Shown here in pieces: positions 40,088 through 50,015 of a stretch of DNA of 64,000 bases. The DNA is from Candidatus Omnitrophota bacterium (lineage in GTDB: Bacteria > Omnitrophota > Gorgyraeia > Zapsychrales > JBAZNR01), in assembly GCA_041649175.1 (NCBI GenBank), contig JBAZNR010000001.1, positions 7,461 through 71,460 of the forward strand, read 5' to 3'. The notes under the pieces were generated by a model that was given only the letters and a program-made list of their open reading frames with translations, was not told the origin of the DNA and searched no databases. The position numbers were made by a program, and so were the translations under genes. How positions within the stretch are numbered: position 1 is the first letter of the stretch; the number at the start of each line of letters is the position of its first letter.

Positions 40088-41035
40088 TTATGAACCTACA
40101 AGCCTAGTTTTTTCATACCAAGCAACTGTCTGCTTTAGGCCTTTTCTAAAATTTACCTTAGCCGTAAAGCTAAATTCTTTCTTAGCTAAAGAAACGTCCA
40201 AACACCGACGAGGCTGTCCGTCCGGCTTTGAGCGGTCCCAAACGATCCTCCCTTTAAATCCCGCCAATTCAGCAATAAGATGAGTTAAATTCCGGATCGA
40301 AATCTCAAACCCCGCGCCAATATTCACCGGATCAGATTTATCATACTTCTCTGCCGCCGCAATAATTGCGCGGGCCGCATCTTTCACATACAGAAATTCT
40401 CTGGTAGGCTTACCCGTTCCCCAAACCGTAATTGATTTTTCTTTCCTTAACTTTGCATCAACACATTTTTTAATGAGGGCCGGAATAACATGGGATGACT
40501 CCGGTGAAAAATTATCCCCGGGGCCATAAAGATTGACGGGAAGAAGAAAAATAGAATTAAAGCCATACTGTTGGCGATAGGCCTGAGACTGCACTAAAAG
40601 CATTTTTTTGGCAAGGCCGTAAGGAGCGTTGGTTTCTTCCGGATAACCGTTCCAAATATCTTTTTCCTTAAACGGAACTTGGGTCAATTTCGGATAGGCG
40701 CAAATAGTTCCTAGGGCAACAAACTTTTTAACACCCAAAACCCTTGATTCCTCCATAAGCTGAGTGCCCATAATAAGATTATCGTAGAAAAATTTTCCGG
40801 GATTGGCGCGATTGGCCCCTATTCCCCCAACGGAAGCGGCCAGATGGATCACAATATCCGGCTTAGTTCTTTTAAGCATAAGCCGAATATCGTCAACACA
40901 GCGAAGATCAAATTCTTTTTTTCGCGGGACAAAAATACTGCGGCATTTTTTCTCTTTTAATTGCGTAACGACATACTGGCCTAGAAAACCGGCACCGCCC
41001 GTAACCACGACCTTCTTAATATTCCAAAATCCCAT
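40088..41035 (-). CDS. fcl: GDP-L-fucose synthase (GDP-4-keto-6-deoxy-D-mannose 3,5-epimerase/4-reductase); could alternatively act as a ColC-like GDP-3,6-dideoxyhexose synthase
   Basis: [14 protein letters not shown] Rossmann motif, catalytic SxxxxxY...K (NAPYGLAKK). Length and overall pattern of Fcl. 1-nt junction with gmd. Confidence 0.85.
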
Positions 41036-42054
41036 TATATTTTTCTTTTTTTCGTTCCAAAAACAGTTTTACGTGTTAACTCCATATCCGCGTCCACCAT
41101 CATCCGAACTAGCTGCGAGAAACTCACCTTAGGTCTCCAGCCCAACTTTCTTCTAGCTTTCGAACTATCCCCGATCAGACAATCGACCTCAGTAGGGCGA
41201 AAATACCGTTTATCGATCGCGACATACTTCTTCCAGTCCATTTTGGCGTAATCAAACGCTTCCTGGAGGAATTCTTTGACCGAATATGTTTCTCCCGTCG
41301 AGATCACGTAGTCGTCCGGCTTGTCCTGCTGGAGCATAAGCCACATCGCCTCAACATAATCTCCGGCAAAACCCCAATCGCGCTTTGAATCCAAATTCCC
41401 TAAAAATAATTTCTTTTGAAGTCCGTATTTAATATGCGCCAATCCCATAGTAATTTTACGCGTTACAAATGTTTCGCCCCGACGCGGAGACTCGTGGTTA
41501 AAAAGAATACCGTTACAGGCGAACATCCCATAAGCTTCCCGGTAATTGACCGCCATCCAATGGGCGTAAACCTTAGCCGCCGCGTAAGGGCTTCTGGGAT
41601 AAAATGGTGTTTTCTCATTCTGAGGAAATTCAACAGTTTTACCGAACATCTCCGAGCTGGAGGCTTGATAAAATTTTGTCTTTATTCCTGAATCGCGGAT
41701 TGCTTCTAATAAACGCGTTGTTCCCACCGCCACGACTTCAGCCGTATATTCAGGGACCTCAAAACTGACCTTAACGTGGCTTTGAGCTCCAAGATTATAA
41801 ATCTCATCAGGTTTAACCGTTTTTATAATACGATTTAAAGAGCTGGCATCATTAAGATCGCCATAAATCAAACGTAGGCGTAAATTCGCTTCATGTGGAT
41901 CTTGATAAAGGTGGTCAATTCGGTCGGTATTAAAGGAGCTTGCCCGACGGACAATGCCATAAACCTCGTATTTTTTCTTCAGCAAAAACTCTGTTAAATA
42001 CGAGCCGTCCTGCCCCGTAACCCCTGTTAACAGGGCTCTTTTCTTGGTGCCCAT
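41035..42054 (-). CDS. gmd: GDP-mannose 4,6-dehydratase
   Basis: [37 protein letters not shown] (YxxxK), and the C-terminal [11 protein letters not shown] typical of Gmd. Confidence 0.9.
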
Positions 42055-42088
42055 TCCAATCCTCTCTTTTCTTCGATTCTTTTTGTTC

Positions 42089-47812: not shown

Positions 47813-47818
47813 AAAAAA

Positions 47819-49039
47819 TTAGCTGCCTCGCTTAACAGGCCTTTTATCCTGGGAGTAATCGAAAAAAGCCTGAATGATATAATCTAAGTCTTTTTGAGTA
47901 AAATATTCATGACAGCCAATATAAAACGCATGGCGATTTAAGAATTTTGCCACCGGAAACCTGTCTTCTAGCCCGGGGCCAAACAATCGTTCATAGACCG
48001 GTTGATTGACAAGCGGAAATAATTCACGTGTTTCTATTCCACGCTGTTCAAGAAAATTGATCAGCTCTGTTTTGGGTTCGTCTTTGACCACCAAGCCGTA
48101 CAGCATGAACATATTATCCCGGTCTAAAAAAGTAGACGGCAGCTGTAACTTGCTTTCAAGCTTTTTTAACCGACGAGTTAAATACAAAGCATTTTTTCTT
48201 CGCCCGCGGATGATCTTATTTCTTTCTTTCATTTGCGCAACACCTAAAGCCGCCTCTAATTCCGTACATCGATAAGAATAACCAATGTCCACAAATCGAA
48301 ACCTTTTCGCGATCACTTTTCTTAAGCGGTCAGGGCTGGAAACTTTGTCATCATCAATAGTCAAGTAAATCGGATCTCTGCCATGATTCATGAGAGAACG
48401 CATCGTAATAGAAAGCTGGCGATCGTTGGTCGTGGCAAATCCTCCCACGCCCGTAACCAGAAAATGCGCCGTATACGTCGAGAAACATCCGATATCGCCG
48501 ATAGAGCCGACCTTCTTCCCTTTATAATGCGCGAACATTGTTTCGCAAGAATCTTCGATGACTTTCAATCTGTATTGCTTGGCAATTTTCATAATGGGAG
48601 CCATGTCCGCCGGAAGCCCCAGCAAGTGGACAGGAATAATACATCGCGTTTTCGGCGTGATCGCTTTTTGAATAAGTTTTGGATCAATATTAAAAGTTTG
48701 AGGATCAACATCCACGAAAACAGGCTTCATGCGGCAGGCGATAACGATGTTCGCCGTCGCGACAAAAGTAATTGCCGGAACAATGACCTCATCACCGTCT
48801 TTCCAGCCAAACGTACTTTTGAGCGCGTGAAGCGCGATTTGCAAGGCACTCGTTCCGCTGTTTGTGAAAATGCTATATTTTACATCATGCGCCCGGGCGA
48901 ACATTCTTTCAAGGCTGCGATGAAACGGCCCATAAGAAAGCCGGCTGCTTTGTAAAACTTGATTAACCAGCTTGATCGCTTGAGCGCTAACCTTCAGTTC
49001 TCCCACGCCTAATTGCTTCTTTTTAATAACTTTAGCCAT
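47819..49039 (-). CDS. DegT/DnrJ/EryC1/StrS-family PLP/PMP enzyme with His at the Schiff-base Lys position: putative nucleotide-sugar 4-keto-6-deoxyhexose 3-dehydratase (ColD/E1-like)
   Basis: Type-I aminotransferase fold (SGTSALQIALHAL; DSCETMFAHYKG). The active-site stretch GDIGCFSTYTAHFLVTGVGG aligns with the canonical GDxxxFSFHxxKNxTxGEGG, with H in place of K. Confidence 0.8.
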   Translation of the reverse strand: MAKVIKKKQLGVGELKVSAQAIKLVNQVLQSSRLSYGPFHRSLERMFARAHDVKYSIFTNSGTSALQIALHALKSTFGWKDGDEVIVPAITFVATANIVIACRMKPVFVDVDPQTFNIDPKLIQKAITPKTRCIIPVHLLGLPADMAPIMKIAKQYRLKVIEDSCETMFAHYKGKKVGSIGDIGCFSTYTAHFLVTGVGGFATTNDRQLSITMRSLMNHGRDPIYLTIDDDKVSSPDRLRKVIAKRFRFVDIGYSYRCTELEAALGVAQMKERNKIIRGRRKNALYLTRRLKKLESKLQLPSTFLDRDNMFMLYGLVVKDEPKTELINFLEQRGIETRELFPLVNQPVYERLFGPGLEDRFPVAKFLNRHAFYIGCHEYFTQKDLDYIIQAFFDYSQDKRPVKRGS

Positions 49040-50015
49040 GATTCCCCTTTTGTTTTTTCTTGAAATATTGTTGCCACCAATTTAGCACATCATCCAGCGT
49101 TTGGTCTAAGCTAATTTCCGGTTTCCAGCCCGTGCGCCTTTTTAATTTTCGGTTATCCCCGCAAAAATCAGGGATATCAAGTTTGCGCATTTTTTGAGGA
49201 TCCTTCAAAACAGATATTTTAGCATTTGTCTTAGAAAGAAGTCGTTTTAAAATATCCTCGATGGCAACTGATCGGCCGCTACAAACGTTGAAAGCTTCTC
49301 CCATATTAGCCTTTTTCATAATGCAATAATAAGCCCCGACAACATCTCTGATGTCACTAAAATCACGTTTTGCCTTGAGATTCCCGACGTAAATTATTGG
49401 TTTTCTCAGTCCAAGCTCAATTTGAGCGATCTGGCTGGCAAAATCAGAAACAACAAATGCGTTCGATTGCCAAGGGCCGGAAAAATGGAACGTACGCGTC
49501 GTATTGATCCGTAGCTGATAATTTTTTCGATAACGTTCCACAAGTTTTTCTTGTATCATTTTGCTAATTCCATACGGGCTAACCGGGGCAAGGCTTTGGC
49601 TTTCGCGGATAGGCAAATCTTTTGGGCTCACCTTCCCATATTCTTCCGCTGATCCGGTTAAAAGAATTTTTGACCGAGGAGAGGTCTTAATAACGGCTTC
49701 AAGGAATTTGGACACTCCCAAAACATTGGTTTCATAAATCGAAGGCGCCATCTCAAAAGAACGCGCGACAGTAACAACAGAACAAAGAAAGTATATCTCG
49801 TCCGCAGAGACCTTAGAGAGAACTTCTTTGATCCGAGAATAATCATTGATATCACACTGAAAAAGTAAACATCCCTTCAAGGTATTTTTCTTAAAAGCAT
49901 CAAGCTTTTTATTATAAGTGCCTACAATTTCATTTTTCTCAACAGTTTTAAGATAATTCCAAAGATGCGATCCGGAAAACCCGTCAACACCAAAAATTAA
50001 TATCCGTTTTTTCAT
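49032..50015 (-). CDS. NAD-dependent epimerase/dehydratase (extended SDR), probable nucleotide-sugar reductase/epimerase
   Basis: ILIFGVDGFSGSHLWNYL Rossmann motif, catalytic SPYGISKMIQEK (YxxxK). ATG at 50015 forms an ATGA overlap with the upstream GT4 gene; the track ORF extends further. Confidence 0.8.
   Translation of the reverse strand: MKKRILIFGVDGFSGSHLWNYLKTVEKNEIVGTYNKKLDAFKKNTLKGCLLFQCDINDYSRIKEVLSKVSADEIYFLCSVVTVARSFEMAPSIYETNVLGVSKFLEAVIKTSPRSKILLTGSAEEYGKVSPKDLPIRESQSLAPVSPYGISKMIQEKLVERYRKNYQLRINTTRTFHFSGPWQSNAFVVSDFASQIAQIELGLRKPIIYVGNLKAKRDFSDIRDVVGAYYCIMKKANMGEAFNVCSGRSVAIEDILKRLLSKTNAKISVLKDPQKMRKLDIPDFCGDNRKLKRRTGWKPEISLDQTLDDVLNWWQQYFKKKQKGNHG

Follow-up and report, generated by a model that had tools for sequence, protein, structure and literature searches.

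A DegT-fold enzyme with histidine in place of the PLP lysine, a predicted GDP-4-keto-6-deoxy-D-mannose 3-dehydratase, in an Omnitrophota polysaccharide locus

We analyzed a 64,000-nucleotide stretch of the genome of a Candidatus Omnitrophota bacterium (assembly GCA_041649175.1, contig JBAZNR010000001.1, positions 7,461 to 71,460 of the forward strand), referred to below as the window; positions are those of the window unless a relative's locus is named. At 47819..49039 on the minus strand, the window encodes a DegT-fold enzyme in which a histidine, His192, takes the place of the pyridoxal 5'-phosphate (PLP) lysine. We predict that this protein, here called DegT(His), is a GDP-4-keto-6-deoxy-D-mannose 3-dehydratase that depends on pyridoxamine 5'-phosphate (PMP) and is independent of an iron-sulfur (Fe-S) cluster. 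That it is a sugar 3-dehydratase we consider probable; the full pathway proposed below, including its pairing with an adjacent Rmd-like reductase, could equally well prove right or wrong. Such a pathway would lead to a 3,6-dideoxyhexose. These sugars are rare and immunodominant, and no more than three types of enzyme (ColD, E1, and SpnQ) have been characterized as removing the oxygen at C3.

The active-site histidine

The open reading frame (ORF) at 47819..49039 is intact, encodes 406 residues, contains SIGDIGCFSTYTAHFLVTGVGG (that is, GDIGCFSTYTAHFLVTGVGG), and matches the Pfam family DegT_DnrJ_EryC1 (PF01041) at 316 bits. Its active-site motif, FSTYTAHFLVTGVGG, spans residues 186 to 200 (48440..48484, minus strand). 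His192 is encoded by CAT at 48464..48466, and Val198 (48446..48448) stands where the GEGG of this family usually has Glu.

We aligned the protein with three enzymes whose catalytic residues are marked by mutants of known structure. By HMMER, His192 lies opposite K186 of the Caulobacter GDP-perosamine synthase Per (3dr7, "GNK"; K186A mutant 3dr4, "GNA") and opposite H220 of E1, the first His of "AHH" (the H220K mutant, 3bb8, reads "AKH"). By MAFFT, it lies opposite H188 of ColD, the residue marked by the H188N and H188K mutants (3b8x, 2r0t). A sequence-only reading of this stretch had claimed that the Schiff-base lysine is replaced by histidine and that this replacement defines the PMP-dependent 3-dehydratases. 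The alignments bear out the first claim. The second agrees with a 2022 review of nucleotide-sugar dehydratases (PMC8987622), which counts only E1, ColD, and SpnQ as characterized and gives the Lys-to-His change as the mark that distinguishes them. In the opposite direction, a ColD double mutant, S187N/H188K, is reported to have become an aminotransferase (Cook et al. 2009).

The histidine is kept in all 120 of the 120 close homologues at 57 to 78% identity and, among the 150 best matches clustered at 50% identity, in 109. The loci that we fetched for context hold 87 clade members, and all 87 have it, while the 20 to 21 paralogous DegT genes in the same loci all have Lys. Because it is conserved across homologues and clade members, His192 is not a sequencing error; it is a fixed feature and not a product of chance. 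Two representatives inside the clade, P0152 and P0180, carry Cys (FSTYCGCVVFTGAGG) or Gln (FSTAGSQPVATGTGG) in place of the catalytic His and could be inactive or functionally shifted variants. The Glu of GEGG is kept in Lys-type aminotransferases, in ColD, and in E1, whereas 73 of 84 members of the His clade have Val or Ile there.

The sequence-only reading had also proposed a check on the [2Fe-2S] cysteines of E1, which form the motif C193-X57-C251-X-C253-X7-C261. On alignment, only the first is present (C165, equivalent to E1 C193 and found in ColD as well); C251, C253, and C261 are absent. Our scan of ORFs from 34.4 to 63.8 kb found no Fer2/FNR-type protein (E3-like or ferredoxin) and none passing TIGR02622 (CDP-glucose 4,6-dehydratase). 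Given the loss of these three cysteines and the lack of an E3 or ferredoxin among the ORFs scanned, we set aside an E1-type mechanism. The absence of the E1 Fe-S cysteines points instead to ColD-like chemistry for DegT(His).

Placement within the DegT family

To place the protein, we sought relatives among 1.84 billion representatives clustered at 50% identity. The signature FSTYxAH..TG[V/I]GG occurs in 109 of the 150 best representatives, which score 196 to 468 bits; Per-like Lys/GEGG and ColD/E1-like His/GEGG proteins appear in this search only at about 280 bits or lower. In a neighbor-joining tree of 126 sequences with 100 bootstraps, the proteins with His and G[V/I]GG form a clade, termed HV, in 98 of 100 replicates. 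A single group of all His-type proteins (HV together with ColD, E1, and their relatives) is obtained in 70 of 100, and a group of ColD and E1 alone in 40 of 100.

Three further features separate the His-type proteins from the Lys-type ones. The stretch between query residues 220 and 253 has a median of 30 residues in HV and 33 in ColD/E1, compared to 14 in Lys-types; HV, ColD, and E1 thus have in common an insertion of about 16 residues. Cys165 and His377 are likewise common to these three and not found in Lys-types. The residue before the catalytic position is Ala or Ser in HV, ColD, and E1 and Asn in Per-like aminotransferases.

DegT(His) matches Per at 197 bits, E1 at 168, and ColD at 142 among solved structures, and its best NCBIfam match is RfbH (NF011936), at 237 bits against a cutoff of 423. 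Compared over its full length with ColD of Escherichia coli O55, it is 27.6% identical (150 bits). The verified GDP-heptose C3-dehydratases of Campylobacter jejuni, by comparison, are 62 to 67% identical to ColD (PMC10440746). The ColD/E1-type identity put forward in the sequence-only reading thus holds in part: the histidine, the insertion, Cys165, His377, and the 70/100 grouping support it, but the low identity, the separate clade, and GVGG indicate that the protein is not an orthologue of ColD. On these comparisons, it is not an orthologue of any characterized enzyme and belongs to a large uncharacterized clade beside ColD/E1. That clade spans Elusimicrobiota, Omnitrophota, Acidobacteriota, Planctomycetota (among them the cultured Limnoglobus roseus PX52, whose clade member, in L084, is 56% identical), Patescibacteria, and DPANN archaea.

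An AlphaFold2 model of DegT(His) (pLDDT 87.9, pTM 0.89, with low confidence in the His loop, residues 190 to 192) superposes on Per, E1, and ColD at TM scores of 0.84 to 0.85 (0.85 to both E1 and ColD), a likeness at the level of the fold only.

Per is thus the nearest solved protein in both score and structure, the GEGG Glu retained by ColD and E1 is gone from the clade, and SpnQ shows aminotransferase activity in the absence of its reductase (PMC8987622). These observations would suit an aminotransferase, or another PMP/PLP enzyme working without an internal aldimine, that makes for example a GDP-4-amino sugar or epimerizes C4. We regard such an activity as improbable. The residue before the His is Ala or Ser as in E1 and ColD and not the Asn of Per-like enzymes, the insertion is common to ColD and E1, and every characterized Lys-to-His DegT enzyme is a 3-dehydratase (PMC8987622). 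In addition, Lys-type Per-like aminotransferases adjoin the enzyme in five relatives' loci (L028, L067, L068, L088, and L089), where a second aminotransferase would be redundant.

Genomic context and the predicted substrate

To predict the substrate, we examined 88 non-redundant loci of clade members, drawn from the taxa listed above, for neighbors up to 10 kb away. Genes of the GDP-6-deoxymannose families occur in 58 of the 88: Fcl-like genes in 40, Gmd in 18, Per-like in 14, and Rmd-like in 5. Genes of all four kinds occur as direct same-strand neighbors of DegT(His), and two loci (L061 and L083) hold compact Gmd-DegT(His)-Fcl-like trios. In four proteins (P0128, P0138, P0141, and P0143), an N-terminal Fcl-like short-chain dehydrogenase/reductase (SDR) is fused to the His-type domain, and the SDR associated with the clade in Elusimicrobia is Fcl/GME-like. 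Context and fusions support well a GDP-linked substrate, and the context points to GDP-4-keto-6-deoxy-D-mannose.

The enzyme expected to supply this substrate is present in the window. A GDP-mannose 4,6-dehydratase (Gmd) is encoded at 41035..42054 (minus strand), as the sequence-only reading had stated, and passes TIGR01472 at 547 bits (cutoff, 415). Also as reported there, a second Gmd-like gene runs off the window end, its C-terminal 70 residues lying at 63787..63999 (minus strand).

A 3-dehydratase acting on some other nucleotide 4-keto sugar, for example the product of a LegB-like dehydratase and nucleotidyltransferase pair, would lead to a 2-acetamido-2,3,6-trideoxy or other 3-deoxy sugar. 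Such a pair lies about 9 kb upstream in the window, weak LegB-like SDRs adjoin clade members in L036, L045, and L075, and many loci have no gmd within 10 kb. However, the LegB-like pair lies outside the conserved module described below and is not in the 21 kb searched of the syntenic locus L004, and the flanking C4 enzymes (Rmd-, Per-, and Fcl-like) are all of GDP-6-deoxymannose families. We give this alternative little weight.

Some clade members have other fusion partners and neighbors. Further fusions (P0121, P0126, P0205, and P0122/P0124/P0135 among them) join the His-type domain to a family 4 glycosyltransferase (GT4), to a family 2 glycosyltransferase (GT2) and a methyltransferase, or to a methyltransferase alone; in another, a C-terminal domain of about 235 residues without a Pfam match resembles a short GT2. 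Just upstream of the His-type gene, an asparagine-synthase-like gene of about 640 residues (19 loci) and a MarC-family membrane protein (14 loci) recur, in L001, L002, and about 19 other Elusimicrobia-type loci, with two GT2 genes just downstream. The order DegT-GT2-GT2...PMT_2/deacetylase in L001 had suggested an Arn-like pathway to UDP-4-amino-4-deoxy-L-arabinose (UDP-Ara4N) in the Elusimicrobia loci. We set this candidate aside because the SDRs there are Fcl/GME-like GDP-sugar enzymes and the Lys-type DegTs are separate genes.

The conserved module and the C4 enzyme

The gene upstream of DegT(His), at 49032..50015 (minus strand), encodes a 327-residue extended SDR with GxxGxxG, Ser, and YxxxK motifs (GVDGFSG, GSAEEYG, and YGISK). 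The adjacent extended-SDR reductase of the sequence-only reading was correctly located; its assignment is now changed to the Rmd type. This type, its translational coupling to the DegT(His) gene, and its replacement by a Per-like C4 aminotransferase in relatives make it the more likely partner of the dehydratase. It matches the GDP-6-deoxy-D-lyxo-4-hexulose reductase 2pk3 at 230 bits, compared to at most 139 for 4,6-dehydratases and at most 88 for Gmd structures. The Thr/Ser-x-Glu motif does not separate Rmd from a 4,6-dehydratase, since Rmd keeps the same residues. We predict that this SDR works as an NADPH-dependent ketoreductase on C4 of what the 3-dehydratase makes.

In the closest relatives (65 to 78% identity), DegT(His) sits in a module of four genes in the order GT4, C4 enzyme, DegT(His), WecG. 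In the window, the GT4 stop codon overlaps the SDR start (ATG at 50015) as ATGA, the 3' end of the SDR gene overlaps the DegT(His) ATG by 8 nucleotides, and the WecG ATG lies 6 nucleotides past the DegT(His) stop; judged by these junctions, the module genes are translationally coupled. The GT4 gene (50012..51181, minus strand) has an orthologue, 63 to 66% identical, in the same slot in L004 and L007. The WecG/TagA/CpsF (GT26) glycosyltransferase gene (47048..47812, minus strand), the last of the module, is kept downstream in L004, L007, and L089.

The slot upstream of DegT(His) does not always hold the same enzyme. It is Rmd-like in L006, L007, L090, and L004/L005; in the last of these, synteny with the window is complete and gmd-fcl, pgk, and tpi are present as well. 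In L088 (8926..10008) and L089 (8909..9985), it holds a Lys-type Per-like aminotransferase with LSFYGNKTITSAEGG, 37% identical to the Caulobacter GDP-perosamine synthase. Both families act on C4 of GDP-4-keto-6-deoxymannose. With a C4 ketoreductase and a C4 aminotransferase alternating in it, the slot is best read as that of the enzyme finishing the dehydratase product. For L088 and L089, this arrangement predicts a natural pathway to GDP-4-amino-3,4,6-trideoxy-D-mannose (3-deoxyperosamine), and Per does bind GDP-3-deoxyperosamine, going by the title of PDB entry 3dr7. There is precedent for the gene order in E. coli O55, where colC precedes and overlaps colD. There is also precedent for the reaction: non-epimerizing C4 reductases of C. 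jejuni reduce a GDP-4-keto-3,6-dideoxy-heptose in vitro (PMC10440746).

The Fcl-like gene and the colitose alternative

The window holds a second candidate partner. The gene at 40088..41035 (minus strand), translationally coupled to gmd, encodes an epimerase/reductase of the GDP-L-fucose synthase family, either Fcl (fucose) or ColC-like. Its best PDB matches are GDP-L-fucose synthases (200 to 220 bits), and it reaches 297 bits with NCBIfam Fcl (NF047922), below the cutoff of 500. The Fcl/ColC-type label given in the sequence-only reading stands at the family level and goes no further, with E. coli Fcl (34%, 206 bits) and O55:H7 ColC (34%, 178 bits) equally near; Fcl and ColC are themselves 39% identical. 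A search of E. coli with the gmd DNA did not single out colitose strains.

If this protein acted as a ColC-type C5 epimerase/C4 reductase after Gmd and DegT(His), the product would be GDP-L-colitose, and the Rmd-like SDR would separately make GDP-D-rhamnose. No neighbor is commoner in the clade as a whole than an Fcl-like SDR (40 of 88 loci, 10 to 12 of them directly adjacent), the trios and fusions noted above exist, and the adjacent Fcl-like proteins of L061, L086, and L024 are 57 to 59% identical to that of the window, which is as near to ColC as to Fcl. Against this route, the window's gene is coupled to gmd as in a standard fucose pair, 6.8 kb from the DegT(His) gene. It is the Rmd-like gene that is coupled to that of the dehydratase, and it sits in the slot that alternates with the Per-like C4 aminotransferase in relatives, and no GT11 or GT10-type fucosyl/colitosyl transferase was found in the locus. 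We consider the colitose route less likely than not, but a serious alternative. Of the GDP-linked 3,6-dideoxyhexose of the colitose type that the sequence-only reading had proposed, we therefore keep the GDP linkage, from context and fusions, and not the L-colitose identity, as the Rmd-like partner favors a D-series sugar.

Proposed pathway

In the pathway that we favor, which ends on the Rmd-like enzyme, Gmd (41035..42054, with the second copy at the window end) would convert GDP-mannose to GDP-4-keto-6-deoxy-D-mannose. DegT(His) would then form a PMP-sugar ketimine, and His192 would take the C4' proton with expulsion of the 3-OH. Hydrolysis would release GDP-4-keto-3,6-dideoxy-D-mannose and ammonia, and an amino acid donor would regenerate PMP by the ColD route, which we favor because the E1 [2Fe-2S] site is absent. 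The Rmd-type C4 ketoreductase (49032..50015) would reduce this product without C5 epimerization, and the resulting GDP-3,6-dideoxyhexose would be of the D series; if the stereochemistry is that of Rmd, the product would be GDP-tyvelose (3,6-dideoxy-D-arabino-hexose). We found no mention of GDP-tyvelose in the literature searched. The co-transcribed glycosyltransferases of this Wzx/Wzy-type locus would then use the dideoxy sugar, and the gmd-fcl pair would most simply make GDP-L-fucose. All the dehydratase steps are modeled on ColD. The analysis itself establishes where the His lies, which clade the protein belongs to, that the Fe-S motif is lacking, how the genes are ordered and overlap, and the context counts; the chemistry, the choice of substrate, the pairing with the reductase, and the configuration of the sugar we infer.

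Several points weigh against this scheme. With respect to the dehydratase, the activity is drawn from enzymes only 25 to 28% identical, and no clade member has been characterized. The solved protein with the highest raw score is Per, an aminotransferase and not a dehydratase. Val stands here in place of the near-universal GEGG Glu that even ColD and E1 keep, and PMP might be regenerated in another way. A single origin of all His-types is recovered in only 70 of 100 bootstraps of a simple neighbor-joining tree. With respect to the substrate, gmd lies within 10 kb in only 18 of the 88 loci. With respect to the reductase, the wider clade mostly pairs DegT(His) with Fcl-like and not Rmd-like SDRs, and the window also has an Fcl-like gene. 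The Rmd-like protein could also be a 4,6-dehydratase, since Rmd and Gmd are close relatives.

Other genes of the locus

Weak IctB, HepC, and HpsP matches had at first hinted at a cyanobacterial origin, but DegT(His) is 100% identical to a protein of a Candidatus Omnitrophota metagenome-assembled genome. The part of the window that starts at about 38.6 kb and reaches its end has nearly all genes on the minus strand and is a Wzx/Wzy-type polysaccharide locus. Its order begins with a Wzy_C gene, the Fcl-like gene, gmd, a second Wzy_C gene, and a WcaJ-like priming transferase. A plus-strand radical-SAM/SPASM/Gfo-Idh-MocA fusion follows, then WecG, the DegT protein, and the extended SDR. Beyond these lie GT4 and GT2 glycosyltransferases, Wzx, a radical SAM/SPASM gene, and further glycosyltransferases. 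The last part holds a nucleotidyltransferase and a LegB-like 4,6-dehydratase, a third Wzy_C gene, a GT2, an SGNH-like protein, and the truncated second gmd.

The fusion gene (45224..47089, plus strand) is the sole plus-strand gene of the locus. It encodes 621 residues that combine a radical SAM domain (CTRKCSFC), SPASM, and a Gfo/Idh/MocA oxidoreductase, and it may be a sugar-modifying enzyme. A strong sigma-70-like site (11 of 12 matches) lies nearby at 45100..45128, and the 3' ends of the fusion gene and wecG overlap by 42 nucleotides. The syntenic locus L004 lacks the fusion gene, and WecG is followed there directly by the priming transferase. Radical SAM genes recur beside clade members: radical SAM/SPASM genes are found in the window (53587..54591, minus strand) and in L001, and B12-binding ones in L001 and L007 (radical SAM coordinates: L001, 6674..7705 and 12649..14139; L007, 6269..7813). 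This recurrence hints at further deoxysugar modification, such as C-methylation.

The nucleotidyltransferase gene (58294..59010, 238 residues) overlaps that of the LegB-type NAD-dependent 4,6-dehydratase (59003..59995), both on the minus strand, and the latter scores 475.5 bits with TIGR04180 (cutoff, 475). No other legionaminic-acid gene (LegC, NeuB-like, or similar) is present in the locus. The pair implies a second 6-deoxy sugar pathway there.

The locus also holds three Wzy_C (O-antigen ligase/polymerase-like) paralogues, at 38674..40071, 42089..43534, and 60006..61535, and a 505-residue ORF without a Pfam match at 55560..57077, all on the minus strand. The ORF at 42089..43534, with a TTG start, overlaps the priming transferase ORF by 122 nucleotides, so a later codon is probably its true start.

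Implications

The proteins with His and G[V/I]GG comprise at least 109 clusters at 50% identity, and databases label them aminotransferases. We tentatively suggest, with less than even confidence, that they are a third class of nucleotide-sugar 3-dehydratase, without an Fe-S cluster and without the GEGG Glu, whose interchangeable C4 partners feed three GDP-3-deoxy sugars. An Fcl-like partner would give a colitose-type sugar, a Per-like one GDP-3-deoxyperosamine, and an Rmd-like one, as in the window, a D-series 3,6-dideoxyhexose of the GDP-tyvelose type. To our knowledge, GDP-3-deoxyperosamine is known only as an in vitro product. Were the family a dehydratase, thousands of "aminotransferase" annotations would be functionally wrong, and 3-deoxygenated GDP-sugars would be far commoner in uncultured bacteria and DPANN archaea than appreciated. 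The interchange of C4 partners beside the same dehydratase would be a natural experiment in deoxysugar pathway diversification and a source of enzymes for GDP-3-deoxy sugars, and the Glu-to-Val change bears on cofactor regeneration. The chemistry is what would be expected of a Lys-to-His DegT enzyme and would be a moderate surprise to a specialist. What is new here is a large and, if the prediction holds, misannotated sister family, an altered active-site motif, and an unusual reductase partner.

Comparison with known enzymes

One close parallel is ColD/WbdK, the GDP-4-keto-6-deoxy-D-mannose 3-dehydratase of E. coli O55 and Yersinia pseudotuberculosis (2gms). Both proteins have the DegT fold with His where the lysine would be, the loop insertion, Cys165, His377, and a genomic tie to gmd and Fcl-type reductases; both lack a [2Fe-2S] cluster, and in both cases a reductase gene overlaps immediately upstream, as colC does colD in O55. 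They differ in that DegT(His) has Ala-His and GVGG where ColD has Ser-His and MEGG, falls in a separate clade (98/100), and is partnered by an Rmd-type reductase and not ColC.

E1 (RfbH/DdhC/AscC; CDP-6-deoxy-L-threo-D-glycero-4-hexulose 3-dehydrase, 3bcx) likewise has His at the lysine position, within Tyr-x-Ala-His, and the insertion. However, the context here is GDP-linked, and neither an E3-type reductase nor a CDP-glucose pathway was found in the locus.

Per of Caulobacter (3dr7/3bn1) is the best solved match (197 bits, 32 to 33% identity, TM 0.84 to 0.85), and its substrate, GDP-4-keto-6-deoxymannose, is the one that we predict for DegT(His). In contrast to DegT(His), it is a true aminotransferase with the Schiff-base Lys after Asn, has GEGG, and lacks the insertion of about 16 residues.

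The adjacent SDR, finally, resembles Rmd of Aneurinibacillus thermoaerophilus (2pk3) over its full length (230 bits), with Ser/Tyr-x-x-x-Lys and membership of the GDP-4-keto-sugar reductase family in common. It differs in its predicted substrate, which is 3-deoxy, and in its predicted product, which would be a 3,6-dideoxy-D-hexose and not D-rhamnose.

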